Below, piece by piece: positions 1,808-59,497 of a stretch of 64,000 bases of DNA. Position 1 is the stretch's first letter. Each line of letters starts with the position of its first letter. The stretch spans positions 1,037 to 65,036 of the IMG/VR virus record IMGVR_UViG_3300045988_180454; one strand, written 5' to 3'. Below the pieces are notes generated by a model. It saw nothing but the letters and a program-made list of their open reading frames with translations, made no database searches and was not told where the DNA came from. Position numbers and translations under genes: made by a program. The stretch comes from a virus.

Positions 1808-2467
1808 ATGCTTCCCCCAATCTTATACTGTGGTGCAACCGAAAACCTACAAGACGTTTTAGATGATGATTGGATCATAGGTATTTTAAGCCATGACTTC
1901 GCACTCATCCTAGTTGATGAGATAGAAGTCATTGAAGAAGAACTCAACACCGACACCAAGTATCGAGAAGAGTTCCTAAAGGCAAAGAACATGCAGCGCA
2001 TTCAATCTTTCGGTTCCATCTGTAACATTCCCGCTGGTAAGAATGAAACAATTGAAATCGGAGTGATCCGGTACGGCAAAGGTTCTTGGGGACTTCAAGC
2101 CTACTTTATTATCCCAGAAGAAGATATTGTAGATGAGAGCCTAGAGTTTAGTCCGACCGAAGAAGAATGGGAAGACTTGTTTAAAAGCTTTCCCATTGAT
2201 GCTAAGTATTCCAAGCCTAAGGTAAAAGAAAAAGTCTTTGAAGCAGTACAAGTCATCAATGCCGAAGATAAAAAGCGATTTGTTGAGCAATTCAATCGAA
2301 CACTTCCTCGCTACCTAGTAGATTGGGAGCACCCAAATGTTTTTCATGACGAAAATTACCTGATGAGAGTAGCATTCAGGAAGACCAATGATAACCGCTG
2401 GAGCATCAGCCCTCGTTTCATTATCGCTTTGGAGCGGGTATTACAAGACATAGAGGAAGAAAAATAA
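1808..2467 (+). CDS. hypothetical acidic protein
   Basis: Long ORF. The first ATG after the repeat element is in frame with track ORF 1745-2467. Confidence 0.6.
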   Translation: MLPPILYCGATENLQDVLDDDWIIGILSHDFALILVDEIEVIEEELNTDTKYREEFLKAKNMQRIQSFGSICNIPAGKNETIEIGVIRYGKGSWGLQAYFIIPEEDIVDESLEFSPTEEEWEDLFKSFPIDAKYSKPKVKEKVFEAVQVINAEDKKRFVEQFNRTLPRYLVDWEHPNVFHDENYLMRVAFRKTNDNRWSISPRFIIALERVLQDIEEEK

Positions 2468-2889
2468 TGAGTGATGAAGTAAATAAACACAACAATGAAT
2501 CATACCTGGAGCTAAAACAGAACTTGAAGGATCTGAAAAGCCTACTGAAAGATGCTTGGCGCCACATCAAGAAAGAAGATCTTTCCGAAGAGTATTCACA
2601 TCTTATCTTTGAGGTCACACCTGGGTATCTTGGGACCATAGCCAAGATGTTTAACGTTCCCGAGGAACATAAAGATAAGTTCGTTAATCTCTCCATTGTG
2701 GTGCCGAAGAGCCAAGAGATCACTTCTTTAGGATATATTACAGGTCGGTATAGCAAGGAAGAGTTAGACTTTACCCCGTCCGAATTACACACCGAGCTGC
2801 GGAATATCCATGAAGCGGGTGCCTTGAAGCTTATTCGACGGGTAGATTTAGGGACCAACTTTGACCCTAAGACAGGTGAGATGAAGTGA
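2467..2889 (+). CDS. hypothetical protein
   Basis: TAATG stop/start overlap with the upstream gene. Coding-like composition. Confidence 0.65.
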   Translation: MSDEVNKHNNESYLELKQNLKDLKSLLKDAWRHIKKEDLSEEYSHLIFEVTPGYLGTIAKMFNVPEEHKDKFVNLSIVVPKSQEITSLGYITGRYSKEELDFTPSELHTELRNIHEAGALKLIRRVDLGTNFDPKTGEMK

Positions 2890-3380
2890 GTCAGCTTAGC
2901 TTTAACTATGATGAACTCGTTTTCATGATTGAGAAAGGACACGTTTCTGACTCACAAATAGAAAAGATCAAGCGCACCATAGGTGAGAATGTTTTTTACA
3001 TTAAGAAAGTCAAAGACGAATTATCTTTGATAAACACTTGGTCATACGAAAAATTTGTACCTGAACACCAAGAGTTTGCTGAACTAAAACTCAGCAAACT
3101 AGGGCTTGGTCTAGGGGAATCAGCAGGGGCAATAGGGAGAGCATCAAAGTATATATATCCCATTCTTCATCTTACGTTACCCGAAAAAGACAGGTGGTGT
3201 TTCAGATTTATGATGCCAGATAGTTTAAGGAAGAAATATATTGAAAGGGGATACCAGTTCTCTGAATTTGTTTTAAATAGGGAAGCTCAAATAAAGTTCA
3301 ACTTCTGGAGTAATCCTTGGGGCGATGATCCTAGTGGATTGGAGGCATACTATGCATGGAAAAGGCATAACCACTTTTAA
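2886..3380 (+). CDS. hypothetical protein
   Basis: GTGA overlap with the upstream stop. ORF of 164 aa. Confidence 0.6.
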   Translation: MSQLSFNYDELVFMIEKGHVSDSQIEKIKRTIGENVFYIKKVKDELSLINTWSYEKFVPEHQEFAELKLSKLGLGLGESAGAIGRASKYIYPILHLTLPEKDRWCFRFMMPDSLRKKYIERGYQFSEFVLNREAQIKFNFWSNPWGDDPSGLEAYYAWKRHNHF

Positions 3381-3780
3381 GACTTCACCTAGGCAGTTCT
3401 GCAAGATCGAAAAGATCTTCGTATACGCCAACGCCTACCAGCTTCGCAACAAGGTGCTAGCTCAGATTGAGCAGGGGAGACCAGTCAAGCTAGGGAAAGG
3501 GTTTGATCCAGATCTTGATGGTCGCCTTAGCTGCTCGCTACAGGAAGTGCGTCGCTGGTACGTGCAGCACGGTGTGCCTGTGGTGTACTTTTTTGTGCAA
3601 AACCCCTTTGTGTTCAGGAGTGATTGGGATAATCCCCACAAGGAAATAAACTATTACCAAGAGATCTTCCCGTTCAACAGCACCCAAAGCGTGGTGATTG
3701 TATATAAAGGACAGTGGTTAGAGCGAGGATCCATCAACGTGATTCGGCTACACACGGAGGGTCCCTATGCCACAGATTGA
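3352..3780 (+). CDS. hypothetical protein
   Basis: GGAGG-N6-ATG at 3341-3354, in frame with track ORF 3325-3780. Confidence 0.6.
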   Translation: MHGKGITTFKTSPRQFCKIEKIFVYANAYQLRNKVLAQIEQGRPVKLGKGFDPDLDGRLSCSLQEVRRWYVQHGVPVVYFFVQNPFVFRSDWDNPHKEINYYQEIFPFNSTQSVVIVYKGQWLERGSINVIRLHTEGPYATD

Positions 3781-4264: not shown

Positions 4265-4687
4265 ATGCGGTTCTTCTTGCCAAAGACTGACCCTGATGTT
4301 TGCAAATATCAACCTGATATCGTTAGGAATGAAGGCCCTGACTTTACGTTCCACAACTTTGACGCATTCACAAGTGCTGAGCCGGACCTAAACACCAAAG
4401 AGCGAGAAGGCAGGGAAATACATATCTACCCTGCCTCACATAACCTAGACCGAATACAAGATTTCTTTTATTGCGGAGTAGATATCGGTGGAAGCAGTCG
4501 TCTACAGTTTTTCTTTGACTACCTGAAGTTTTTAGATAGAGGGAATGCTTTTTATGTTGTTGTTCACGAAGAGTACCGGAAGCCTCCGTTTTTCTGGAGA
4601 CGTCCATGGGTAGAAATCAGCTCAGCAGATCATTTCTCTTGCAACTTTAATGCTAATTTTCGCTACCGTATTCCATCAAAGCTGTAA
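4265..4687 (+). CDS. hypothetical protein
   Basis: GAGGAG-N6-ATG. ORF of 140 aa. Confidence 0.65.
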   Translation: MRFFLPKTDPDVCKYQPDIVRNEGPDFTFHNFDAFTSAEPDLNTKEREGREIHIYPASHNLDRIQDFFYCGVDIGGSSRLQFFFDYLKFLDRGNAFYVVVHEEYRKPPFFWRRPWVEISSADHFSCNFNANFRYRIPSKL

Positions 4688-4792
4688 CTAAGCGTATAAT
4701 ATAAAGCAAGCTTCCCATATAGAAATACAGGAAGCCAGATACTGTTTCTCCACATGGAAGATCAGCTACCACAATTATAACAGAAAGGAAGC

Positions 4793-5682
4793 ATGATGTT
4801 AACCCCCGTGACGGGTATTCTTTTGCGGATTTCCAGTATGAAGGGGAAAAGCTTATTGACCAGCGCAAGCGTTTTCCCATCACATCTCGCAAACTCAACC
4901 GTAAAGAGACAGAGAGAATCTGCAATGATTTATTCTCTCGCTACCATAAGTACGGTGTCTCTAAAGAAGACATCTCGCAGGTGATTTACTATGCCGAACA
5001 CCCATGCGGAAACTTCTATCATGAAGGACGTATTACTTTTGGTACCGGAGTGAACATTCATGGAGGAGCGCTTTCTGGAGAAGGAATGCTCTCTAATGTT
5101 TCGATGCATCAGGCCACTATTAAGGAAAGACGAAGCTCCGAATCAAGCATCGTTTATTTCATCGCCAATTCAGATATCGGCTCTACGATGTTCTTTCTTG
5201 AACCAGGCTCAGTGATTATAGACTCTCATGTTGGCTGCTCAACTATTATAAATAGGAAAAATGCTATTCGCTTCGGCACATTAACCTTTGTAACATTAAA
5301 AGGTGATAATGAGATTAGCTCAAGCGATATTGAAAACTGTTTAATTGTAGACTCTGACATCCATGCGTCCCGGGTTAAAGGTTTTAGTGAATCACTTATC
5401 ATAGCGAATGCGGCTATTCGTTTTCAGAATGACGTTTTTGAAATCTGTCGATACCATTTAGAAACAAAAAGGAAAGAAGGGGGACTTTTGTATCGGACAA
5501 AAGGCAAGGGGGTTGCCTTTTTTACCCCGGATTATGGGGTGAAAATTCTTGCAAATAAACATCGTACTTCAAAGATTACTTACTATATTGAGAAGTTATA
5601 TGAAGGGAGCGCAAAAAAGCGAAATGAGTTAATTACTGGGGCACAAGACTTTATTGAAAAAGTGTTTGATGAGTCACAATGA
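4793..5682 (+). CDS. beta-helix-like repeat protein; needs a -1 shift at the C5 run 4803-4807 (or has a homopolymer error)
   Basis: The frame of ORF 4981-5682 is open and protein-like from 4723 but has no ATG/GTG/TTG before 4981. AAAGGAAG-ATGATG at 4785-4798 is in the +1 neighbouring frame. The C-terminal part has repetitive G/S/I/V-rich strands. Confidence 0.5.
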
Positions 5683-5734
5683 CTTGCGAGGGGACATACA
5701 CATACATATACTGGGGGATACAGAAAGGAAGTGA

Positions 5735-7914: not shown

Positions 7915-8209
7915 AACAATAATTGAACTCTGTACAGATACCATGAGAAGAAGTTTTGCTGCTGCCTTGGCTCAAACGAGATTAAATAATTCGCCAAAGT
8001 CTCAAATTTTTAGTCTGCTTGGTGGCGGAATCTCTTCTTTACAGCGATTGTTATATAACGATGAAGATAGCATCAAAGAAAACAGCAAGCCGTTATTGTC
8101 AAACAGTGAAACAGTTCGTCTGATTGAAGAGGTTCGTTTCGCCTTTAACCTGGTGATTGACGGACAGCTGGAATTACTCAGGGATGAGAGAGAAGGGGAG
8201 GAATTATGA
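7907..8209 (+). CDS. hypothetical protein (paralogue of 7095-7388)
   Basis: ATG 7907 overlaps the upstream stop (ATGCCTAA) and is in frame with track ORF 7847-8209. Confidence 0.55.
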   Translation: MPKTIIELCTDTMRRSFAAALAQTRLNNSPKSQIFSLLGGGISSLQRLLYNDEDSIKENSKPLLSNSETVRLIEEVRFAFNLVIDGQLELLRDEREGEEL

Positions 8210-8751
8210 GTGACCAAGAAGAATGGTTAGGTGAATCAGCTGAATACTGGAAGCAGCATGCTGACAGCGCTCGGCATATGATGAGTTTGGTTGCAAGTCT
8301 TGAAAATTTGTTCTCATGTCGCTTCTCGCTCACCAGTGGTGGTGACTACTCTGACTTGTCCTCAGCTTTAGAAAAAAGTGTTTTCAATGAACTGGGGGAC
8401 ATAAATATCCGAGGCATGCGAGAATATATTGATGCTATAAAGCCAAAGCTTCGTATGACAAGTAATTGCCATCATGACGAAAATAAAGAACCTGTGCCTC
8501 AAGCCTGCGTGTATCAGTGGCGACTGTCTGATTACATCGAGGTAACAGAGCATATGATTGCGGCTTCTCGTTTATTTTTGAAGCTAGAGGATCCTATGCT
8601 CTTTGGCCGCAAAGATATTATGGATAAGATCAATGAATACCTGGAAGTAATTGAGAAGTTCAATTGTCTTCCTGCTTTTGAATACACCGATAAGTTTGCT
8701 AGAAGAGCAAGGATCAAACTAAAGGACATGGGATATAAGGAGGTAAAATGA
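8206..8751 (+). CDS. hypothetical protein
   Basis: GGGGAGG-N5-ATGA overlap. ORF of 181 aa. Confidence 0.65.
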   Translation: MSDQEEWLGESAEYWKQHADSARHMMSLVASLENLFSCRFSLTSGGDYSDLSSALEKSVFNELGDINIRGMREYIDAIKPKLRMTSNCHHDENKEPVPQACVYQWRLSDYIEVTEHMIAASRLFLKLEDPMLFGRKDIMDKINEYLEVIEKFNCLPAFEYTDKFARRARIKLKDMGYKEVK

Positions 8752-9221
8752 TTCTCGACATGACCTGTGGTGGGAAAAGCACCTGGTTTAATAAGCACCC
8801 AGAAGATACGGTGTTCCTAGATAAAAGAGTGGAGAAGCTTACTCTTTGTGATAATCGAGAAATCGAAGTAAGGCCTGACGTTCAAGCGGATTTTTGTCAA
8901 CTTCCCTTCGCCGACAATAGTTTTCATCTCGTGCTATTTGATCCGCCTCATCTAGAACGCCTAGGCGACACAAGCTGGATGTATGCAAAGTATGGAGCGC
9001 TTCTTCCTGATTGGAGAGACGTGCTAACTCAGGGCTTCTCGGAAGCGTTTCGGGTGCTCAAACCAAGCTGCGCTTTGGTGTTTAAGTGGAATGAGATTCA
9101 GATTCCAGTAAAAGAAATCACGGCCTTATCACCTTATCCACCCATGTTTGGTCACAGAAGTGGTAAGGTAAGTAAAACGCATTGGCTGACTTTTGTAAAA
9201 CCGGGAACCCTAGATGAATAA
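8748..9221 (+). CDS. small SAM-dependent methyltransferase (motif I DMTCGG, motif IV DPPH)
   Basis: ILDMTCGGKS ... LVLFDPPHL matches the N6A/N4C-type DPPY/H catalytic motif. At 157 aa there is no room for a classical target-recognition domain. Confidence 0.6.
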   Translation: MILDMTCGGKSTWFNKHPEDTVFLDKRVEKLTLCDNREIEVRPDVQADFCQLPFADNSFHLVLFDPPHLERLGDTSWMYAKYGALLPDWRDVLTQGFSEAFRVLKPSCALVFKWNEIQIPVKEITALSPYPPMFGHRSGKVSKTHWLTFVKPGTLDE

Positions 9222-9834
9222 CGAACAATACGAAGAGTTTATGAAGCTAGCTCAAGAGCAGAAACAGATTGCAAAAGATCTAGCTCAAACAGCGGAGGAG
9301 CTGGATTCCTATATGTCGTATTACCGTGCCACCGGCGTAGGCAAAGGCTTTGCGGGAATGTTCTACTCTGACGCAGAAAAAAGCCGTCTCTCTACTCTAG
9401 GCAGTTATTTTTCTGAGGAGATTGATAAGCTTCATCAAGCGATCAAGGAAATGAACGATGCTTACTTGAAAATTCGCCTGGATATTCCCGAGCTGCACCA
9501 ATCAGAATTGAAATCTTTGAGGGCAAAGGCACTCACTCTTCAGAAAGAAATTGCGTCCCAAGAAGCCTTACTGAAATTGGATGCAAGAAAGCGAAATTCC
9601 CAGGTAACGTTTAGCGTAATGTTTTTTGTTTGGCTTGGCGTTATTGGTTGGTACTTGGGATCCGTGATTATGTGCTTGATTGTCGCTAGCCTATTTCTGT
9701 TATACGGGTCTTGGGTAGCGTCACTCATTTTCTCTCCTGCTTTACAACAACAGCACAAAGAGTTAGAGGCAAATAAGGCAGAATTACAAGACAATGCTGC
9801 ACGACAAGCAGAGCTGAGTTTGGAGATGTACTAA
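9214..9834 (+). CDS. coiled-coil / 2-TM hairpin / coiled-coil membrane protein (array member 1)
   Basis: Heptad-rich charged N- and C-terminal parts flank the hydrophobic stretch VTFSVMFFVWLGVIGWYLGSVIMCLIVASLFLLYGSWVASLIF. Confidence 0.6.
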   Translation: MNNEQYEEFMKLAQEQKQIAKDLAQTAEELDSYMSYYRATGVGKGFAGMFYSDAEKSRLSTLGSYFSEEIDKLHQAIKEMNDAYLKIRLDIPELHQSELKSLRAKALTLQKEIASQEALLKLDARKRNSQVTFSVMFFVWLGVIGWYLGSVIMCLIVASLFLLYGSWVASLIFSPALQQQHKELEANKAELQDNAARQAELSLEMY

Positions 9835-10175
9835 TGTTATCGCCTGAGCTCAACGCAATGTTAACTAAAAAGAGCGATATTGAAGAACGGATCATTGCCC
9901 TTAAAGCTGAGCGCAAAGCGATTATTGGTTACTATATTCTTTGGACAGGTTTATGTATTCCTGTATTGGGTGTCTCGTGGTTGTTTACTGTAGTCTTGGG
10001 ACATACCGGAATTATTCTCCTTGGAATAGTTTGCTGCACAGTTTGGATATTAATGGTTTATGTTGGATCTGACGAGGTTCATAGAGAACTTTTTGATAAC
10101 ATCGAGGCAATGAGCAAGAACAAGGGCTTACTCAAGAAAGTAGAGAATCAAATTGAGGATTGGGTGACGAGATAG
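9834..10175 (+). CDS. coiled-coil / 2-TM / coiled-coil membrane protein (array member 2)
   Basis: TAATG overlap. Hydrophobic core IIGYYILWTGLCIPVLGVSWLFTVVLGHTGIILLGIVCCTVWILMVYV. Confidence 0.6.
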   Translation: MLSPELNAMLTKKSDIEERIIALKAERKAIIGYYILWTGLCIPVLGVSWLFTVVLGHTGIILLGIVCCTVWILMVYVGSDEVHRELFDNIEAMSKNKGLLKKVENQIEDWVTR

Positions 10176-10176
10176 G

Positions 10177-10863
10177 ATGAGTGAAGAAGAAAAACAAGTC
10201 GAGGCCCAACTCTTAACTCAGCTTCGCATACTCACAAGCAATCTCGAAACTGTATCTGACAAAGCAGATTATCTTGCAGAAAATCAAATTTCTTATGCAG
10301 ATTTTGTTCATTCTGCTAGTTATTGGCCTATGGATTATCGTAGGTTAGCAAATCTAGAAGATTATCGTCGGGAAATTACATTAACTGGCAAGTCGGCGGA
10401 AGCCGCGTTAGATCGAATATCTTCTATTGTTTATCAGACCAGAGGCATCATGTCGAATTTAAAGGAAGTTGTCGATAAACTTCCTGGGGTACAAAAAAGA
10501 AAGGAAAACCTGGAACGTATGAAGGAGACGAAAGAGCTAGATGAACGAGAGTTAGAGCTGAAGAAAGCCATTGTCTCAAAGCAGTCCGAAATAGAGAGAA
10601 CACAGAAAGGGATGAAAAGGATCCTGGGTTTCTCTTTTGTTACAATCCCCGTTTTTACCGCTGTCGGAATCCTTTTTCCTGCGGTGTGGGTGTTGTGCGT
10701 CACAACTATTTTTGTGGGGATTATCACACTGTTTCTTGCCTTTGTTATGCTCTCGGGTCTCGCAAAAGACGGTATAATAGATACCGGAAAGCTAGAAAAA
10801 GATAAAGTAGAGCTAGATTGGGTGCAAACCAAAAAAGCTCAGTTGTTTTTGGAGTCAAACTAA
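10177..10863 (+). CDS. coiled-coil / multi-TM / coiled-coil membrane protein (array member 3)
   Basis: Long charged helical N-terminus, then ILGFSFVTIPVFTAVGILFPAVWVLCVTTIFVGIITLFLAFVMLSGL. Confidence 0.6.
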   Translation: MSEEEKQVEAQLLTQLRILTSNLETVSDKADYLAENQISYADFVHSASYWPMDYRRLANLEDYRREITLTGKSAEAALDRISSIVYQTRGIMSNLKEVVDKLPGVQKRKENLERMKETKELDERELELKKAIVSKQSEIERTQKGMKRILGFSFVTIPVFTAVGILFPAVWVLCVTTIFVGIITLFLAFVMLSGLAKDGIIDTGKLEKDKVELDWVQTKKAQLFLESN

Positions 10864-11210
10864 TGAAAAACACTGAACAAGAGCTCTTTCAGTTAGAGGA
10901 AGAAGCGATAAAGCTTCGGACGGCAATTGAAAACAAAAATCTTGAACTCAAAGACCTGAAAAAGAAAACTGTATATGCAGCAGTATTCTATGCAGTAATC
11001 ACCGCTGTTTGTTTTAATTCCGCTTGGCACCAGACCTCAGATCTCAAAGCAGCGGGGCTTATCGCTTGCGGGATGCTGTTTCTTGGTATGTTCGGCACAT
11101 GCCTTACCGACCGGAAAGACGAACTTAGCCTCAAGAAAGGAATCAATCACATTGAGGCAAAGCTAGAGCAAAACCAAAAGAAGCAAGCTGACTTGCTGTT
11201 GGGACTGTAA
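10863..11210 (+). CDS. coiled-coil / 2-TM / coiled-coil membrane protein (array member 4)
   Basis: ATG 10863 forms a TAATG overlap with the upstream stop. Hydrophobic segments VYAAVFYAVITAVCF and AAGLIACGMLFLGMFGTCL. Confidence 0.55.
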   Translation: MKNTEQELFQLEEEAIKLRTAIENKNLELKDLKKKTVYAAVFYAVITAVCFNSAWHQTSDLKAAGLIACGMLFLGMFGTCLTDRKDELSLKKGINHIEAKLEQNQKKQADLLLGL

Positions 11211-11212
11211 AA

Positions 11213-11365
11213 ATGATTTTAACCATTATCAACATTGCAATGTTATGTGTCGCCTGTACCTTGTCCTTCCTGTCGGCGAAGACCCTTCGGGAAACATCTT
11301 ATGTTAATAGACGAATAGCTGAGCTAGAAAGGCTCAAGAAAGCTTTGGAGGCGAAAGGTGAGTGA
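11213..11365 (+). CDS. 50-aa TM + coiled-coil peptide (array member 5; too short for the ORF track)
   Basis: Hand translation: MILTIINIAMLCVACTLSFLSAKTLRETSYVNRRIAELERLKKALEAKGE. Starts 3 nt after the upstream stop. Its end overlaps the next start (GTGAGTGA). Confidence 0.45.
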   Translation: MILTIINIAMLCVACTLSFLSAKTLRETSYVNRRIAELERLKKALEAKGE

Positions 11366-11549
11366 TACCTTATCCACTGTGATTTTCGCCTCCCTTGCAG
11401 GTCTATTTGTTGTCAATTACTACGTCGCTAAAAAGGATTATCAGAAAAGTGTTCAAAAAGATCAAGAAATGGTGCAAGAATTACTACGATGCATTCGTGA
11501 GTTTGATTCGTCACATCACCAAGCGGGAAACCCCGAAGCATCTTCCTGA
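11358..11549 (+). CDS. TM + helical tail small protein (array member 6)
   Basis: GTG start coupled to the previous ORF. Hydrophobic N-terminal segment VIFASLAGLFVVNYYV. Confidence 0.5.
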   Translation: MSDTLSTVIFASLAGLFVVNYYVAKKDYQKSVQKDQEMVQELLRCIREFDSSHHQAGNPEASS

Positions 11550-11594
11550 GTTCCCAGTAGAAAAGTGGCTTGCGTTACAATCCGCTCAAGTTGC

Positions 11595-11624
11595 TTGACA
11601 ACGATGATCTAGAAACCTTACAAT
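11595..11624 (+). promoter_or_regulatory. sigma-70-like promoter TTGACA-N18-TACAAT
   Basis: TTGACA at 11595-11600 and TACAAT at 11619-11624, in an intergenic region. Confidence 0.55.
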
Positions 11625-11630
11625 GAAATC

Positions 11631-11812
11631 ATCTTCTTAACGAAGAGCCCTGGTAGGTTTACACGCTACTATCTCCTTTTCACCTATTTTTGCGTTTGGA
11701 GTTCAATTCTCCAACAGGGCACGGGTTCAACTCCCCTCGCAGTACAAAATGGCGTTTCTGTGTATGTGAACTGAGGTTCAACAAACCCCCGGTAACCCCG
11801 GGGGTTTTGTGT
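11631..11812 (+). ncRNA. candidate ~180-nt small RNA with a tRNA-like domain, between a promoter and an intrinsic terminator
   Basis: No ORF. GCCCTG (11648-11653) pairs with CAGGGC (11715-11720), enclosing the hairpins GTAG-N9-CTAC and TGGAG-TTCAATT-CTCCA (T-arm-like). A second GGGTTCAACTCCC element follows. No convincing anticodon arm could be drawn. Confidence 0.35.
11783..11812 (+). terminator. rho-independent terminator
   Basis: 10-bp stem AAACCCCCGG/CCGGGGGTTT with loop TAACC, followed by a T-rich tail. Confidence 0.7.
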
Positions 11813-11825
11813 TACCATAATCACT

Positions 11826-12062
11826 ATGACTGAAACCAATCCAGAAATGGAAAAAGCACTAGCTGACGTGCTAAAATTTGTTGATGAGAACACCAAAACC
11901 AGTGAGAAGAAACCGTTCTGGCCTGGTGTTATTTTTGCCTTTGTGCTTGTTGCCGTAGGCTATTTGACGTTTGAATCGTGGTTTGCAATGGGACAATATG
12001 TCCTAGCGTCCATGGTTCTTTTGCTCTCTATGGCGCCACTTTTGGTCACAGAAAAGGAATAA
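11826..12062 (+). CDS. 2-TM small membrane protein (array member 7)
   Basis: Hydrophobic segments WPGVIFAFVLVAVGYL and YVLASMVLLLSMAPLLV. Ends 1 nt before nrdE. Confidence 0.55.
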   Translation: MTETNPEMEKALADVLKFVDENTKTSEKKPFWPGVIFAFVLVAVGYLTFESWFAMGQYVLASMVLLLSMAPLLVTEKE

Positions 12063-27718: not shown

Positions 27719-28180
27719 TTAGTCCTCCTTCTTCGCCTTGTTCTTCTTGATCGTCTCTCGTAGTGCTTCGACGGTTACCTTAGCGTCAGCTTTGGCGTCG
27801 ACATCGGGATGCGAAGCCGGACTAGGCGCCTGAGGCTTCGGCGGTTCCGAGGTTACGACAGCTTCCTTCACCACGTCTGCAACCGGAGGCGTGAGGGTGT
27901 GGGTAATTTCGTTTGCAGTTGCCTGGGAGAGACCGTTCTTGGTGAGCCGTGCAGCAATGGAAGCACCGATAGCCGCAACAGCGGTGGTGATAAGCGCACG
28001 GAAGTCAAACGTGTCACTAGCCGGTACAGTGGCTGCCAAGGCAACCAGACCAGAGATAACACCGCCTGCTAGGGAGTTAATGGTGTTGGCATAGCGCCGA
28101 TAGAACGGTTGGTTTTCGACGAACTCACCAATTGCATCACCGATGGTATTGTAAACCTCAGCATTATAATTCTTAGACAA
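27719..28180 (-). CDS. holin-like membrane protein
   Basis: Two hydrophobic helices (LAGGVISGLVALAATV and ALITTAVAAIGASIAA) and a charged tail. Immediately downstream of and overlapping the endolysin gene. Confidence 0.55.
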   Translation of the reverse strand: MSKNYNAEVYNTIGDAIGEFVENQPFYRRYANTINSLAGGVISGLVALAATVPASDTFDFRALITTAVAAIGASIAARLTKNGLSQATANEITHTLTPPVADVVKEAVVTSEPPKPQAPSPASHPDVDAKADAKVTVEALRETIKKNKAKKED

Positions 28181-29570
28181 GAGGGATTCCTAACTCTATC
28201 TTACGTTGACGAATAACCTTATCTGGGTCTTCGTCGAGGATCTTTAGTAGCTGACGAAGCATAGCCTCAATATGGAAGCTGCGCTCATCATTGAAAAGCA
28301 TATAGCTACTTGCAGGGAAACTCACATTTGGATTTACCCTGGAGGTGTAACTTTCGCTCAAAGCAATATCTCCTAAAATATCGTCACTGGATGAAACTTT
28401 GTTGGCGGAATACGCATAACCTTTTGGCGGAATGAGGGTTGCTAACTGCTCATGACTGATCCAATACTCGTATGGCCAAAAACCAGAATCTGCAATCGCG
28501 TAGTGCTTCACGCCGTTGTCAATGGCATAACCCACCACAGCAATATAGTGGTAAATTTCACCACCACCATAGCTAGGGGTGGTGCTGCCACGAGTACCAA
28601 TAGGATAGTTACTCGGTGGAGCAACGATATTGGCTATCGCTGCGTAGCCTGCGTCAATGGATCCGGTAATGTCTTCCCAAAGCTTCTGCTTCTGATTCCA
28701 TGTGGGCGGATCATTTGGCATATCGCTAAAGGTATAGTTGCCACCCTGAATCAGGCTATTGAGTACCGGGATAAACTGACCGATGTAATCGGTCCCGTTA
28801 AACGTGGTGTTTAACCACGTTGCTAGCTCGCTCTCGGCGTAAAGGATCTTCGTTGCCGTCCAAACAACAGTTTGTGTCGAGGCCGGACCACAATAATAAC
28901 CTGTGTCTTGAGGCAAATAGCCATGGTTATAGTCAAGAACTTTTTCTACATTTTTGGGCAAATATTCCTCCTCTGGCAACAAAGCGTCGCCGAAAATTAA
29001 AGCGTTATCGAACCGCATTTGGCGATCAGTAATCCCGTTGGTGCCACCATTTATCGCTTTTGTTGCAGCAATAAAGTTGTCGTAACGGTCAACGCCATTA
29101 AGGTTAGGATCGGCCGCACCATCTGCGTACTGGTTAAGCTTTGGCCTGGCCACCGTCCAGTACCAGACTGCACCTAAAAATCCGTATTCTTCACCCGAAA
29201 GCAGAGTGGGATTATCGACAAAGTAGGTGCTGGAAGGCACGTAGCCTTGGGCAAATGCCCATTGACTTAGGTTCTTGTAGTTTGCACGTCCAGTAATTTG
29301 GATTGGTCCACGTCCTTTGTAGCGAACCCCATCTCCTGGATACACATTGCCGAGGTCACCTCGCCACTCGTACTCTTCTCCTGAAGCGTATTCTTCCATC
29401 GCAGATAGTCCGACGGATTCGTGACCTAACTGAGCGCAAAACATTGCGGCTCTTGGTATCGTTGTGCAGCCGGCCTGAGCGAGAGCCTTGTTAAAAGCAG
29501 GCGTCAGCTTGCGGTATTCATCAACCGACATGGCCCAATTCATCACTCGGGCTAAAACTTCAGGCTGCAA
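28173..29570 (-). CDS. endolysin: GH19 glycosidase domain + Cys-peptidase-like domain
   Basis: GH19 signature-like GHESVG ... YKGRGPIQITGRANY. Central YYCGPAST candidate nucleophile Cys. Confidence 0.8.
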   Translation of the reverse strand: MQPEVLARVMNWAMSVDEYRKLTPAFNKALAQAGCTTIPRAAMFCAQLGHESVGLSAMEEYASGEEYEWRGDLGNVYPGDGVRYKGRGPIQITGRANYKNLSQWAFAQGYVPSSTYFVDNPTLLSGEEYGFLGAVWYWTVARPKLNQYADGAADPNLNGVDRYDNFIAATKAINGGTNGITDRQMRFDNALIFGDALLPEEEYLPKNVEKVLDYNHGYLPQDTGYYCGPASTQTVVWTATKILYAESELATWLNTTFNGTDYIGQFIPVLNSLIQGGNYTFSDMPNDPPTWNQKQKLWEDITGSIDAGYAAIANIVAPPSNYPIGTRGSTTPSYGGGEIYHYIAVVGYAIDNGVKHYAIADSGFWPYEYWISHEQLATLIPPKGYAYSANKVSSSDDILGDIALSESYTSRVNPNVSFPASSYMLFNDERSFHIEAMLRQLLKILDEDPDKVIRQRKIELGIPLV

Positions 29571-29572
29571 TT

Positions 29573-30607
29573 TTAAGGACGCCTCCTTAGACGTTTCTCA
29601 TAATCTGAATTATCTTTCATAATTTTATCATTTTCATCACGAGTTGTCGAATTGTTTTGAGCAGCTACTTTTGGAGTAAGAAGTACAGCAGTAAGCGCAT
29701 TGAGGTTGAGCCCCCCAAGCCAACTTCGATATTCATTTGATCGAACCCAAAGACGAACCGAATAACCAGGCTCAGGGATAACTATCGCCTCTACCAACTG
29801 CAAGGTAGCTGATACAGGTGCATGCATATGACAATCACGATGCTCTCGTTTTTCATCGCTCTTGTTATACACGGAGAGTTCAGCCCAGGTCATACGGTTA
29901 TTGTTTGGAACACCAAAACCTGTTGATGGGGTGTCTGTAGTGGCCCTGGCCGAGACCAACCAAGTCCCCGCTTCCTCAAAAACCACTCTGCGATTTGTTG
30001 CGTCCAACCTTGCACCTTTTGAGGGACCGAACTGCTGATTAAAAGGAATAAGCCGCTCAAGCTGTTGTGAGATAGGAATTCCTGTTCCGAAAAAGTCTTG
30101 AACTAAACCAAGAAACCCGCTGTTTGCAAAAATATTTGTATCACTAAAAACAGAAATATAACCGTCAGGAAGTAAGTCAAACCGGTTCCGAATATCAGCA
30201 TCAAGCGAGGATAATTGATTATTAAACCGCTCATTATTCGTCCGCATTTGCGCTTCAATATTTGGAATCGTTTCTGTCTCAACCTTGTGGATTTTTTGCC
30301 GATTCGCTGTAACATCTGCCCTGGTTGCATCAACTACTTTCGTTGTTTTATCAATATTATCATTTGCCTTAGTGACATTTGTCACAATCCCGCCGATAAG
30401 AGTATTAGAATCAGGCACTGCCTTTACAGTAAACGCGCCTGATTCAGCCTGCTTTTCAGCATCGGTGCGGGTATCCGGGGCAATGCCTCCTGGAGTGGTG
30501 ATAATGAGATCATCAGTATTGAGCTGAGTAGGGGACTGTTGTGCATGCTCGGCTGGAGAATCCCAGGTATCATTATTCCAGTGTGGATGGTTTATAATCT
30601 TCGCCAT
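29573..30607 (-). CDS. tail fibre / receptor-binding protein candidate
   Basis: Last structural-size ORF before the lysis genes. Coiled-coil middle and a beta-rich C-terminal domain. Confidence 0.45.
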   Translation of the reverse strand: MAKIINHPHWNNDTWDSPAEHAQQSPTQLNTDDLIITTPGGIAPDTRTDAEKQAESGAFTVKAVPDSNTLIGGIVTNVTKANDNIDKTTKVVDATRADVTANRQKIHKVETETIPNIEAQMRTNNERFNNQLSSLDADIRNRFDLLPDGYISVFSDTNIFANSGFLGLVQDFFGTGIPISQQLERLIPFNQQFGPSKGARLDATNRRVVFEEAGTWLVSARATTDTPSTGFGVPNNNRMTWAELSVYNKSDEKREHRDCHMHAPVSATLQLVEAIVIPEPGYSVRLWVRSNEYRSWLGGLNLNALTAVLLTPKVAAQNNSTTRDENDKIMKDNSDYEKRLRRRP

Positions 30608-30971
30608 CGTCTAATATCCCTTTCGTAATTTCTTCATCTAGATCATCTAGCATCTGCACCAATCTTTGCACCCGCGGATTCTCCTCAATCGCCGAAGCAG
30701 CAAGAGAGTTCCGCAGGACTCGAATGAGTTCAGAAGCAACCCGCTGCCAACGAACAAAATAGCGATTCGTTTCTTCCAGTTCTTCGCTTGCTTGTTTGAG
30801 CTGAACCAGCTCTTTTTCTAACGATTTATACGACTTGAAACCGGGCTTATTCACCTGAAATTTAATCCTCTGTCGGAGTACAGAAAGCAAAACTGTCAAA
30901 GCCAGTACTATACTGACTATCTGACCTGCTGTTGTTGAAGTATCTAGATGCCCGAAGTCAACCGGTATCAC
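30573..30971 (-). CDS. TM + coiled-coil protein
   Basis: GTG 30971 forms a GTGA overlap with the upstream stop. Hydrophobic segment IVSIVLALTVLLSVL, then a helical charged region. Confidence 0.5.
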   Translation of the reverse strand: MIPVDFGHLDTSTTAGQIVSIVLALTVLLSVLRQRIKFQVNKPGFKSYKSLEKELVQLKQASEELEETNRYFVRWQRVASELIRVLRNSLAASAIEENPRVQRLVQMLDDLDEEITKGILDDGEDYKPSTLE

Positions 30972-31393
30972 TGCACCCCCTCGAAAAACCACACTTGGGA
31001 AATTGTTACATGTAAAGCAGCGATGAACATTGCCAACAACCCAACTCCAAAAAAGAAGTTATAGGAAAGAAACATTCCGCCAACACACCATAGTAACCCA
31101 AAGACACCCCAAACACCAGCGCTAACTATGTGAGCTAGATTGACTTTCTGAAGAATCTTAGCCCGCCATGTGAGATAAGCAGCACAGACTGGGAAAATAA
31201 TATCCCAAATATCAATGCCAAAGAAGGAAGGCATGATGACAGGTATCGGACGAGGGATCGAAGTAAGCCCAATATGTGGATGAGCAGTCAAAAACATCAA
31301 TCCGAAGCCCAACATCATAAACGCCAAGATGTAAGAACAGCGTTGAAGCGCAGCAATAGTTGATTCTCCATGAAGGCCTTTTTGATTATCCAA
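30968..31393 (-). CDS. 4-TM integral membrane protein
   Basis: Four long hydrophobic segments in 141 aa. Confidence 0.55.
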   Translation of the reverse strand: MDNQKGLHGESTIAALQRCSYILAFMMLGFGLMFLTAHPHIGLTSIPRPIPVIMPSFFGIDIWDIIFPVCAAYLTWRAKILQKVNLAHIVSAGVWGVFGLLWCVGGMFLSYNFFFGVGLLAMFIAALHVTISQVWFFEGVQ

Positions 31394-54546: not shown

Positions 54547-55839
54547 TTATTCAGCTAAGCGTTCAACGGATTCAACCCATTGATTTACCAGGTCTTTGAA
54601 ATCGGGTGGGACAAAGCCCTCGCCTTTTACAAACTTCCCTGTTTCTGGGTCGGTTTTCCCACCTTTGAACTTGGTGCGGTTTGATTCGCAAACCCGTTCG
54701 AGTGCTGCTGAAAGATCGTAACCGGTATGGGTTTTCACCGCCAAGCCTAAAAGAGTGAAAAGAACGTCGCCGAAGGCGTCGTAAAGATCGGTGAGCACTT
54801 TTTCTCGGTATTCTTGATCCAACGCAAACTTGGGCTTCGCCATGAGGTTTACCGCTGATTTGAGTTCGTCTACTTCTTCGAGGAAGAAGTTCAGTGCTGG
54901 ACGAAGCAGTGCTTCCCGGTCGCCTTCTGCATTCAACAGGATTTTCATATGGTCTGAAATGCTTGGCGGGATTTGTCCAACCTGCATGTTCCAGTTGCTT
55001 ACTTCGTTGACGAAACCATCAAAAGCCCAGTTTTGTGATTCCTTATAAGTAGTTGGCGCTTTGGGGTCTGTGCTTAAGCCTGCGTCTTCAAGAACCTTAC
55101 CAAAAACCGCACGGTCAAGATTGTAAAGTTCTTCGGCAATAAGTGCGATTACTGACCGGAACTCCGCATCTACACCTGCATCAGAACGCTTCTGAATAAT
55201 TTCTGACCAGGTTCGGAAGTTACCTGTAACCACAATTGATGTCGCGGTAGCATTTGGCAATACACAGCGAGCTGCTTCCGCTGCTTGTTTTTTAGAAGCC
55301 TCCGGGTGATAGCGCATTACCATGTCGAAAAGCTTATTGTACAGGTCTACGCTTTCGTTGGCGAAGCACTCTAGCTTTGCTTCCATTGATGCTTTAGGTG
55401 AAAGCGGAGGATAACTACCGCTATGAGTGAGGGGGAGGTCTTGTAAAGCCGGGGGAAGCACCATCTCTAACCCCTTATCTGGGGAAACAAAACGCTGAGA
55501 CAGTACGCTAAACGACAAGTGGCGGTGGCGCGTAAGCTCTGCCAAGAATGACCGGCTTACACTTTCAAGAAGGAATGTTGCCGAAGCGTGTTCCATGATG
55601 GAGTAGTGGTGTTTTTCATGGATCGTCTTCTCTACGTACTTAGTCGGCGTGTTGGTTTCCTCATTTGGACGATCCCAAGACTGGTAGCAGTTCCGTCCCG
55701 CAAACTCAATAAGACGGGTTGAATCTGGATCACCTGGTTCATGAGGAAGCACGTGTCCAAAATCGTAGTTGAACTCTGGATTTAGCCGGGTGAAGGCAAG
55801 TAATGTTACTTGCGGAGTCTGAGAGATTCGCACATTCAT
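54547..55839 (-). CDS. thyX: flavin-dependent thymidylate synthase fused to a MazG/all-alpha NTP-pyrophosphohydrolase-like domain
   Basis: ThyX signature RHRHLSFSVLSQR in the N-terminal ~270 aa. The C-terminal ~150 aa carry LEEVDELKSAV ... DAFGDVLFTLLGLA ... VCESNRTKF. Confidence 0.75.
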   Translation of the reverse strand: MNVRISQTPQVTLLAFTRLNPEFNYDFGHVLPHEPGDPDSTRLIEFAGRNCYQSWDRPNEETNTPTKYVEKTIHEKHHYSIMEHASATFLLESVSRSFLAELTRHRHLSFSVLSQRFVSPDKGLEMVLPPALQDLPLTHSGSYPPLSPKASMEAKLECFANESVDLYNKLFDMVMRYHPEASKKQAAEAARCVLPNATATSIVVTGNFRTWSEIIQKRSDAGVDAEFRSVIALIAEELYNLDRAVFGKVLEDAGLSTDPKAPTTYKESQNWAFDGFVNEVSNWNMQVGQIPPSISDHMKILLNAEGDREALLRPALNFFLEEVDELKSAVNLMAKPKFALDQEYREKVLTDLYDAFGDVLFTLLGLAVKTHTGYDLSAALERVCESNRTKFKGGKTDPETGKFVKGEGFVPPDFKDLVNQWVESVERLAE

Positions 55840-58858: not shown

Positions 58859-59497
58859 CTATGCAGACTGCTTTGATTCTAGCATAGTGAGGAATTTTTC
58901 GGTGCGGTCACTGATGGTTGTTGCCATGTCCTCAACTTCGGCTTCTGAAGCACAAATGTCCACGTTGGCTACGTGAGTAATATCTGTGTAGCCTTGTGCC
59001 TCCAAAATCTTTTGAGTGTCTTTCACGGCTGCGCAAAAATCCCGACCAAACGTAAGGTTCCCGACACCAATAATGAATTGGGGGGTGTCCCGCAAAATAA
59101 GTTTTTCTGCTTGCAAAAATTCTTTGAGTGGTTGGGGGATCATGTCGTCTTTCACCCGCCTTCCGATCGCTGGGTCGTCAACGAACCGTCCGTAGCTGGG
59201 AACCAACCACACCACAGAGGAATACATACGCTTTCCGCGGAACTGAGCTGCATCCATGTCGAGGGATGCGTATTGCTGTACAATTTCAAGCTTGATTCGA
59301 TCCACCGCCTTGAGGTGTCCCCTTACGCCTTCTTTAAGGGCATTCGTGAGACAAATTCCTTCAAACTTAGGAGCAGCCTTAGGGTTCCTTAGCCATAAAG
59401 TTTCCTTTAGCTTATCAAAGACTTTTTGAGTGTTACCGGAAAGACTGTAGGCAACAAGAAGATGGTTCATCCAAGGTTCAGGTTGGTTATTCGGCAT
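58859..59497 (-). CDS. nrdI: NrdI-like flavodoxin (longer than usual, 212 aa)
   Basis: LVAYSLSGNTQKVFDKL near the N-terminus and IIGVGNLTFGRDFCAA resemble the NrdI motifs (SxSGNT, GxGNxNFG). Confidence 0.5.
   Translation of the reverse strand: MPNNQPEPWMNHLLVAYSLSGNTQKVFDKLKETLWLRNPKAAPKFEGICLTNALKEGVRGHLKAVDRIKLEIVQQYASLDMDAAQFRGKRMYSSVVWLVPSYGRFVDDPAIGRRVKDDMIPQPLKEFLQAEKLILRDTPQFIIGVGNLTFGRDFCAAVKDTQKILEAQGYTDITHVANVDICASEAEVEDMATTISDRTEKFLTMLESKQSA

Follow-up and report, generated by a model that had tools for sequence, protein, structure and literature searches.

We analyzed a 64,000-nucleotide (nt) stretch of viral DNA, positions 1,037 to 65,036 of the IMG/VR record IMGVR_UViG_3300045988_180454 (hereafter the window), which contains nearly the complete genome, about 65 kb, of an uncultured tailed phage. 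On its plus strand, between a DNA methyltransferase gene and the ribonucleotide reductase (RNR) gene nrdE, lie seven short open reading frames (ORFs), referred to here as g1 to g7. An initial annotation of the sequence had described them as one array of seven translationally coupled coiled-coil/transmembrane (TM) proteins. Here we report that the array is better described as two parts, six genes (g1–g6) that close an operon of early orphan genes and a single membrane-protein gene (g7) that belongs with nrdE, and that a sharply bounded hypervariable island spans the TM hairpin of g2 and the N-terminal domain of g3.

Seven small ORFs between a methyltransferase gene and nrdE

All seven ORFs were found at the coordinates and with the lengths first assigned to them. 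The first, g1 (9214..9834, plus strand, as are all seven; 206 amino acids, aa), is predicted to consist of a conserved N-terminal helical cytoplasmic domain (about residues 1–125), a 2-TM hairpin (about residues 131–173) and a C-terminal charged helix. It is followed by g2 (9834..10175; 113 aa), in which a conserved N-terminal and a conserved C-terminal helix enclose a hypervariable 2-TM hairpin (aa 29–80), and by g3 (10177..10863; 228 aa), whose hypervariable N-terminal helical domain (aa 1–100) leads, from about aa 101, into a helix, a 48-residue uncharged TM hairpin and a C-terminal helix. The product of g4 (10863..11210; 115 aa, ATG at 10863) has a helix, two TM helices joined by a 7-residue loop, and a further helix. 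Two shorter genes come next: g5 (11213..11365; 50 aa), with an N-terminal TM helix (residues 1–22) that no charge precedes and then a K/R-rich cytoplasmic helix, and g6 (11358..11549; 63 aa, GTG start), with an N-terminal TM helix (about residues 4–24) followed by KK and a charged helix. Finally, g7 (11826..12062; 78 aa) combines an N-terminal charged segment with a 2-TM hairpin.

The gene upstream of g1 matches the methyltransferase family PHROG 954 (E 6e-66), confirming that the block lies between a methyltransferase gene and nrdE. The junction sequences, including the start/stop overlaps, also read as described earlier. The methyltransferase stop and the g1 start overlap by 8 nt (ATGAATAA), the g1/g2 and g3/g4 junctions are both TAATG, and g5 and g6 overlap by 8 nt (GTGAGTGA); spacers of 1, 2 and 1 nt separate g2 from g3, g4 from g5 and g7 from nrdE, respectively. 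Start/stop coupling is frequent along the whole plus-strand arm of the genome, and therefore it is no special property of the array.

Conservation was evaluated in related contigs drawn from IMG/VR, ENA and Logan metagenome assemblies. Synteny, which the initial annotation had proposed to compare, was kept: in 15 loci from independent samples all seven ORFs were present in the same order, their lengths equal or almost equal, and no member showed presence/absence variation. Orthologues support the start codons: the GTG that opens g6 in the window is ATG in relatives, and in one relative (L020) no start precedes the one corresponding to the g4 ATG at 10863. The ratio of nonsynonymous to synonymous substitution rates (dN/dS), from pairwise Nei–Gojobori estimates, was 0.05–0.22 for the seven ORFs, with dS of about 1.0–1.3, near saturation, for g1–g5. 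The flanking methyltransferase and nrdE genes gave comparable ratios of 0.03 and 0.04, and the dN of the cassette was 3–6 times that of these two genes. Among the members, g4 is the most constrained (dN/dS 0.047; 84–95% amino-acid identity); the values were 0.09 for g5 (74–94% identity), 0.11 for g1 (orthologues 69–90% identical) and 0.22 for g6. These estimates indicate that the seven ORFs are real genes under purifying selection. The idea that they are chance open frames, which only the short length of g5–g7 would favor, is refuted by these ratios, obtained at dS of about 0.3–1.3, and by the retention of starts, lengths and synteny in the 15 loci.

One lineage, represented by 12 contigs that come from several samples, carries a frameshift in g1. 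Its A6 tract has become A7, producing a +1 shift just before the TM hairpin; the other genes are intact. The site (about position 5370 of L087, equivalent to about 9583 of the window) gives a 201-aa product without the anchor. The A7 allele may be a true truncation or a form of slippage-prone phase variation.

Predicted membrane topology and architecture

Each ORF contains a 19-residue Kyte–Doolittle window of at least 1.6 (7/7). Uncharged hydrophobic blocks of 40–54 residues in g1, g2 and g3 leave room for two helices and a very short turn, g4 and g7 each have two hydrophobic helices, with loops of 7 and 8 residues, and g5 and g6 each have one N-terminal helix. The TM segments and their K/R-rich flanks are retained in orthologues. 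The positive-inside rule, an established guide, was used to assign topology. On the N-terminal side of the hairpin, g1–g4 and g7 have 4–5 K/R, compared with 0–1 in the loop; the TM segment of g5 and g6 has no positive charge before it and 3–4 K/R after it. No signal peptide was found before the 125–150-residue N-terminal domains of g1 and g3. Because of this charge distribution and the lack of a signal peptide in g1 and g3, these simple rules predict that every charged helix lies on the cytoplasmic face, with only about 1–8 residues outside (loop lengths were judged by eye).

A greedy ORF survey of the window revealed few other TM-bearing genes, namely the holin gene, two genes near it and a tape-measure-sized ORF. 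The union-bound probability of a run of seven TM genes among about 80 genes is at most 5e-5, and the clustering of TM genes is thus non-random. The single architecture first proposed for all seven holds for g1–g4, which share the order helix, 2-TM hairpin, helix, with an extra 100–125-residue helical domain in front in g1 and g3; it does not extend to g5 and g6, which consist of an N-terminal TM segment and a helix, or to g7, which has a helix and a hairpin and lacks the C-terminal helix.

The proposed coiled coils fared less well than the TM segments, which are of TM-grade hydrophobicity in all seven. A crude heptad test against composition-preserving shuffles did not exceed the shuffles (p 0.03–0.35). 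AlphaFold2 (AF2) models of g3 (pLDDT 65) and g1 (pLDDT 64) were all-helical, both at low confidence, and the best sub-threshold matches of the g3 profile to PDB sequences were coiled coils of the GCN4/tropomyosin type. As the AF2 helices are of low confidence and the heptad signal does not beat the shuffles, coiled-coil character is plausible rather than demonstrated.

Signals of paralogy within the array were faint. Profile–profile alignment with hhalign gave E 1.4e-3 (probability 17%) for g1–g3 and E 0.012 (3.5%) for g3–g4, no signal for g2, and probabilities of 0.4–17% overall. In a segment-wise test, in which residues were shuffled within segments so that architecture and composition were kept, the C-terminal module of g3 resembled g4 (p 0.009, z 3.4), as did that of g1 (p 0.014, z 2.9); the comparison of the two C-terminal modules gave p 0.06, and g2 was not significant. 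The weak similarity of g4 to the C-terminal modules of g3 and g1 is collinear, and an old duplication among g1, g3 and g4 is possible.

A hypervariable island spans the TM hairpin of g2 and the N-terminal domain of g3

The island (9870..10550, plus strand) covers most of g2, mainly its TM hairpin, together with the N-terminal domain of g3, and is bounded by recombination. Between two related loci, L015 and L001, DNA identity was 37–68% within it, versus 79–99% over about 1.3 kb upstream and 87–100% over about 1.2 kb downstream. In the same pair, the g3 N-terminus was 21% identical at the protein level, and g4 and g5 were 99–100% identical. The g3 N-terminus fell to 19–23% identity between phages that are otherwise nearly identical. 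For the island as a whole, amino-acid identity was 19–42% between genomes with flanks that are 85–100% identical. Amino-acid identity of relatives to the window was 83–99% for the methyltransferase, g4, g7 and nrdE. Within g2, it was 70–86% for the cytoplasmic helices and 23–42% for the TM hairpin (aa 29–80); within g3, it was 70–90% for the C-terminal half and 19–70% for the N-terminal 100 residues. The dN/dS was 0.36 for the TM part of g2 and 0.06–0.14 for its helices, and the last 30 or so residues of g3 were nearly invariant (dN/dS 0.025).

The variation was organized in discrete types. When 26 g3 clusters were grouped at 80% identity, their N-terminal 100 residues gave nine types; at 60%, these residues gave six types and the C-terminal 125 residues just one. 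The TM/C-terminal part of g1 occurred as two allelic types. Allele types of the g1 TM/C-terminal part, the g2 TM part and the g3 N-terminus assorted independently, and the g3 C-terminal part, g4, g5 and g6 were inherited together. Divergence this deep beside near-identical flanks excludes local drift and requires exchange from a maintained pool of divergent alleles, a pattern typical of specificity determinants under conflict.

Other parts of the early arm also differ between relatives. In the comparison of L015 with L001, two further sharply diverged islands (positions 750–1200 and 2250–3480 of the locus, roughly 2900–3400 and 4400–5700 of the window) showed 55–70% DNA identity in genomes that are otherwise 85–99% identical around them. 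Between the window and another relative (L019), the gene at 8206–8751 has likewise been replaced (42–54% identity).

The pattern of inheritance bears on whether the seven genes belong together at all. They might be independent small membrane proteins with unrelated jobs, brought side by side by local duplication and operon packing and forming no complex. The weakness of the paralogy signals and their confinement to g1, g3 and g4 fit this idea; g2, g5 and g6 have only the general architecture in common, translational coupling is genome-wide, and a natural truncation of g1 is tolerated. However, no member was lost or gained among the 15 loci despite identity as low as 19% in parts, the run of TM genes is highly non-random, and the block from the g3 C-terminal part to g6 is passed on as one conserved unit. 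We regard independence of the seven as unlikely.

A promoter, a tRNA-like RNA and a terminator separate g7 from g1–g6

The promoter–small RNA–terminator unit reported within the array was recovered, with both its promoter and its terminator conserved. A sigma-70-like promoter (11595..11624, plus strand; TTGACA-18-TACAAT, 11/12 match) divides g1–g6 from the downstream genes. It is the sole plus-strand site of 11/12 quality in the 64 kb, and both hexamers are conserved in nine loci. An intrinsic terminator (11783..11813, plus strand; AAACCCCCGG-TAACC-CCGGGGGTTT, then TGTGTT) ends 13 nt before the g7 ATG, and its stem is invariant in nine loci.

Between them lies a conserved tRNA-like RNA of 71–81 nt (11647..11721 in the window, plus strand), in which an acceptor-like stem of 6 bp is combined with a canonical T-arm-like hairpin whose loop reads UUCRAUU. 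The T-stem shows compensatory changes between relatives (UGGAG/CUCCA, UGAAG/CUUCA and UAGAG/CUCUA). A short covarying variable stem surrounds a C/U-rich loop with an invariant UACUAUCUCC, which looks anti-Shine–Dalgarno-like in sequence; after this loop come a second T-loop-like motif, GGGUUCAACUCCC, and then the terminator just before g7. ARAGORN at default settings made no tRNA call and Rfam gave no family match for this RNA, and it is not a tRNA in form, having only the acceptor-like stem and the T-arm and no cloverleaf with D-arm and anticodon arm. It is restricted to the clade and partly duplicated in some relatives. It may act as a small RNA in its own right or as a leader/attenuator of g7–nrdE.

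The evolution of g7 also differs from that of its upstream neighbors. It is 92–99% identical among relatives in which g1–g3 are 48–90% identical, and its dS is 0.31 versus about 1.0–1.3 for the neighboring genes; the segment 11813–12062, which comprises g7 and the 30 nt before it, is almost invariant in nucleotides. The low dS points to extra constraint at the nucleotide level or to a recent sweep. No Shine–Dalgarno sequence precedes g7. A CATAAT box stands 4 nt before its ATG, and the g7 mRNA might be leaderless; leaderless mRNA is common in Actinobacteria. A search of protein sets with g7 returned matches in its own clade only. In Corynebacterium phage Kimchi1738, the position of g7 is occupied by a 77-aa 2-TM gene that overlaps nrdE and has no sequence similarity to g7. 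Given its own promoter and terminator, its coupling to nrdE and its different evolution, g7 stands apart from g1–g6 as part of the nrdE unit. The array of seven originally proposed therefore survives as a non-random run of TM genes and resolves into six plus one.

The cassette is an accessory element in its genome context

The plus-strand arm (about 1.7–27.7 kb) opens with a long run of orphan genes without PHROG function, and g1–g6 sit at the end of this mosaic early region. The methyltransferase gene, the g1–g7 block, nrdE, nrdF, a SNF2 helicase gene and a PD-(D/E)XK exonuclease gene follow the orphan run in that order, with a DnaE-like polymerase and a primase-polymerase/D5-type helicase further along the arm. 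The minus strand encodes the holin, endolysin, tail, head and packaging genes. Two additional features of nucleotide metabolism were observed there. A single 430-aa ORF at 54547–55839 looks like a thymidylate synthase/MazG-like gene fusion, its N-terminal half matching thymidylate synthase (PHROG, E 5e-52) and its C-terminal half a MazG-like nucleotide pyrophosphohydrolase (E 8e-20). At 58859–59497, on the strand opposite to nrdE/nrdF and about 45 kb away from them, lies a gene for an NrdI-like flavodoxin, which matches a flavodoxin PHROG and narrowly misses the Pfam cut-off (E 1.5e-5).

Among cultured phages, the nearest relatives are Corynebacterium phages in the family Zierdtviridae (Kimchi1738, C3PO, Zion and P1201), with amino-acid identity of about 50% for NrdE and DnaE and 42% for the portal. 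Megablast of the region against 50,697 phage genomes gave no nucleotide-level match. One 3.9-kb related contig (L018) had been binned in a metagenome-assembled genome (MAG) labeled "uncultured Streptococcus"; we rejected it as evidence for a Streptococcus host, since NrdE, DnaE and the portal are closest to those of Corynebacterium phages and the binning is probably wrong. The g1 and g3 proteins are identical to database records named "MAG TPA ... Caudoviricetes sp.", and the nr name "coat polyprotein" attached to g1 (P0030) was set aside, as nothing in the analysis supports it.

In Kimchi1738, g1–g6 are absent upstream of nrdE, although the order RNR–helicase–exonuclease is kept. By this comparison, the g1–g6 cassette is accessory at the family level, specific to its clade and absent from its nearest cultured relatives.

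This distribution is relevant to a possible role in replication. The cassette could encode proteins that anchor or organize phage DNA replication at the membrane, much as phi29 p1/p16.7 may do, their helical domains tethering replication proteins or DNA. Both phi29 proteins are made early, sit in the membrane and have been proposed as replication anchors (PMC4974454), the helices of the cassette are all predicted to be cytoplasmic, and the cassette lies on the plus-strand arm directly upstream of the genes for RNR, SNF2 helicase, PD-(D/E)XK exonuclease, DnaE-like polymerase and primase-helicase. However, Zierdtviridae with the same replication module do without the cassette, and a promoter and a terminator intervene between it and the nucleotide/replication genes. 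Moreover, the cassette is mosaic, with dN 3–6 times that of the flanking genes, and library scans of its members detected no DNA-binding or other domain. A replication anchor is therefore improbable in our judgment.

Database searches reveal no related family

Consistent with the first inspection of the sequence, which had found no family assignment possible, no library or sequence/structure search yielded a family. Pfam, PHROGs, NCBIfam and PADLOC gave no significant match for the seven proteins. In tblastn searches of the 50,697 phage genomes with g1, g2, g3 and g4, nothing was found even at E 0.1 (g3: E 0.01). When g3, g1 and g7 were the queries in word-indexed searches of 5.8e9 proteins, only the same clade was returned, and a full HMMER search of 1.84e9 protein representatives with the g3-family profile gave four matches, all within it. 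PDB sequence profiles for g1–g4 produced only sub-threshold generic coiled coils. Foldseek comparison of the AF2 models of g3 and g1 with PDB and BFVD gave no match with E < 1, and the entries for BAR, Vipp1 and alpha-pore-forming toxins were rejected as generic long-helix matches. The least weak matches were three. That of g6 to SLATT/2TM effectors scored 16.1 bits versus a cut-off of 100; the PADLOC "2TM effector" match of g6 (E 0.0021, 15.6 bits) covered only the TM segment and the adjacent helix. A match of g4 to XaxA-type toxins reached 14.1 bits in NCBIfam (cut-off 125), and one of g3 to a PHROG of no known function (E 8e-5) was within noise. Among 52 other viral contigs with homologous methyltransferases, no comparable TM array was found downstream. 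Literature searches found no description of the cassette or of the phage group.

These searches also bear on a role in host takeover, in which the proteins would act against host machinery at the membrane (for example, divisome, elongasome or polar-growth scaffolds), like SPO1 gp56 or cytotoxic mycobacteriophage TM proteins. Small TM proteins of actinobacteriophages other than the holin are often highly toxic when overexpressed (PMC11797047), and the cassette, with its predicted cytoplasm-facing charged helices on membrane anchors, ends an orphan early operon. But a PHROG search and tblastn of g1–g4 against phage genomes found no similarity to any such inhibitor, and conserved division or growth proteins are not obvious drivers of alleles at 19–23% identity, unless the hosts differ. 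We consider host takeover an unlikely role.

A possible cytoplasm-facing assembly for conflict

We tentatively favor the possibility that g1–g6 constitute an early accessory membrane assembly, facing the cytoplasm, that serves in conflict, through either exclusion or counter-defence. As the last translationally coupled segment of the long early orphan run, g1–g6 would supply small inner-membrane proteins produced together early in infection. Through contacts between TM hairpins and between cytoplasmic helices, the six proteins may join side by side as a platform anchored in the membrane, in which the conserved part (the g3 C-terminal module, g4, g5 and g6) would act as a scaffold and the exchangeable g2 TM and g3 N-terminal modules as specificity determinants touching a variable partner. 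The job of such a platform could be superinfection exclusion from the inner face, directed at genome entry or establishment of competitors, or neutralization of a membrane-associated host defence. Core replication and lysis would not be the role of g1–g6, and g7 would stand apart as a small membrane protein that goes with nrdE. We counted in favor of this reading that the number, order and length of the set are fixed across relatives, yet the set is absent from the nearest cultured family.

A fuller version assigns parts to all six subunits. The g3 C-terminal module, g4, g5, g6 and g1 would form the scaffold of a platform on the cytoplasmic face, and the exchangeable g2 TM hairpin and g3 N-terminal domain would recognize variable partners (a rival phage's ejection or channel proteins, for instance, or a host defence bound to the membrane), resulting in allele-specific exclusion or immunity among co-circulating phages of the human-associated microbiome. 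This would be a kind of phage machine not described before; we regard this version as a long shot.

The initial annotation had included superinfection exclusion and a defence or counter-defence channel among its suggestions. A conflict-type role now gains indirect support from the accessory status of the cassette and from the recombination-bounded island. An exclusion mechanism that faces outward, or a channel, is not favored, because the outside loops have only about 1–8 residues and the charged helices are predicted to be cytoplasmic.

Several observations weigh against the conflict assembly. The dN/dS of the variable parts is 0.35, not above 1, and dS is saturated. Substitutions are tolerated in helical and TM segments, and relaxed constraint may thus account for part of the fast evolution. 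Allele swapping is not unique to the cassette, since the early arm contains at least two other mosaic islands. The g1 frameshift in 12 contigs implies that anchoring of g1 is dispensable or variable, or that the genomes carrying it are defective. The AF2 models show monomers, at low confidence. Furthermore, exclusion proteins are usually single genes, and many of them act at the outer face.

If the conflict assembly is real, it would represent a multi-subunit version of phage exclusion or counter-defence, located on the cytoplasmic face and equipped with a swappable pair of specificity modules, and it would offer a tractable system for how co-circulating phages of human-associated bacteria tell apart each other or their hosts. 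Whatever its function, the block of orphan genes is genuine, under constraint and confined to its clade; g7 is to be treated with the RNR unit, and a conserved tRNA-like RNA lies between the two. Because the cassette is an orphan and neither its phage nor a host is in culture, its immediate impact is modest.

Comparison with known systems

In function, the nearest described counterparts of the cassette are the phi29 early membrane proteins p1 and p16.7, exclusion proteins such as T4 Imm/Sp, and small toxic or holin-like TM proteins of actinobacteriophages; it differs from each in sequence and in at least one defining feature. The lysis cassette of the window lies elsewhere, as the initial annotation had stated. 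The holin gene (27719–28180, minus strand; PHROG 3428, E 5e-14) and the endolysin gene (28173–29570, minus strand; PHROG 1519, E 6e-140) are 16 kb from g1–g7. Two ORFs on the minus strand between the lysis and tail genes (30573–30992 and 30968–31393) have TM-grade hydrophobic segments and may encode extra lysis-associated membrane proteins.

It is nevertheless conceivable that the array encodes lysis-timing proteins (holin, antiholin or pinholin-like) or membrane-depolarizing viroporins away from the endolysin. The cassette proteins share the generic holin trait of small size, 1–3 TM helices and a charged C-terminus, which does not discriminate. In size and N-in/C-in 2-TM topology, g2, g4 and g7 resemble class II holins and LysF1a of F1 mycobacteriophages, an 88-aa holin-like protein with two TM domains (PMC13056207). 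The likeness to LysF1a and Ms6 gp4/gp5 lies in small size, N-in/C-in two-TM form and actinobacterial hosts (PMC13056207; PMC11797047), but the genes for such holin-like proteins stand in the lysis cassette beside the lysins and g1–g7 do not. The weak matches to 2TM/SLATT effectors and alpha-pore-forming toxins also point in this direction, at scores far below thresholds (16 bits versus 100; 14 bits versus 125; Foldseek E > 1). Against such a role, PHROG holin and endolysin genes sit adjacent to each other elsewhere with two more TM genes nearby, g1–g6 are in an early orphan operon, and none of the seven matched a holin family in Pfam, PHROG or NCBIfam. We consider a function in lysis timing very unlikely.

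Pore-forming systems resemble the cassette only in outline. The bipartite/tripartite XaxA/YaxA, AhlB and SmhB toxins have long helical stalks with a hydrophobic hairpin and are encoded by adjacent genes whose products co-assemble. Alpha-pore-forming toxins, however, are soluble proteins of 300–400 aa that insert from outside, whereas the cassette proteins are 50–228 aa and would insert from inside; the structural comparison gave Foldseek E 2.6–9.7 and TM scores of 0.13–0.40 with a low-confidence model, which does not place them in this class. Likewise, g6 scored below the family threshold for SLATT/2TM abortive-infection effectors.

The phi29 proteins p16.7 and p1 are small early proteins with a membrane anchor and a cytoplasmic helical/coiled-coil region, encoded with the replication genes (PMC4974454). 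The cassette encodes small membrane-anchored proteins with predicted cytoplasmic helices near replication genes, on the same strand and arm, yet upstream of the conserved dividing promoter and terminator. There are two phi29 proteins versus six here, and the former are not known for hypervariable modules. The layout of p16.7 (TM segment, coiled coil and C-terminal DNA-binding domain) is not that of g5 and g6, which end 28–40 residues after the TM segment. No similarity of this type was detected by tblastn of g1–g4 against the 50,697 phage records, and g5 and g6 had no significant PHROG or Pfam match.

In architecture, the cassette recalls the chlamydial Inc proteins, which have an uncharged "bilobed" hairpin of 40–60 residues, both termini in the cytosol and frequent coiled coils. 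Inc genes occur in tandem, fast-evolving arrays whose members have architecture but not sequence in common, and their products scaffold on a membrane face. The organisms are unrelated, Inc proteins are delivered by type III secretion and there is no homology; the analogy is purely architectural and serves as a model of how proteins of this form can work.

Superinfection-exclusion proteins offer a further comparison. T4 Imm and Sp and lactococcal Sie2009 are small 1–2-TM membrane proteins that block entry of competing genomes, and the T4 pair is early; such proteins are accessory, evolve fast and differ from one related phage to another. They are single-gene functions, whereas the cassette has six fixed members with large cytoplasmic helical domains and almost nothing outside. 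PHROG, Pfam and PADLOC gave no match of the cassette to Sie families, nor did tblastn of g1–g4 against phage genomes. The cassette nonetheless shows the exclusion-protein trait of small accessory membrane proteins that vary among close relatives and, judged by these comparisons, it represents a clade-restricted orphan among the early membrane-protein modules of phages.

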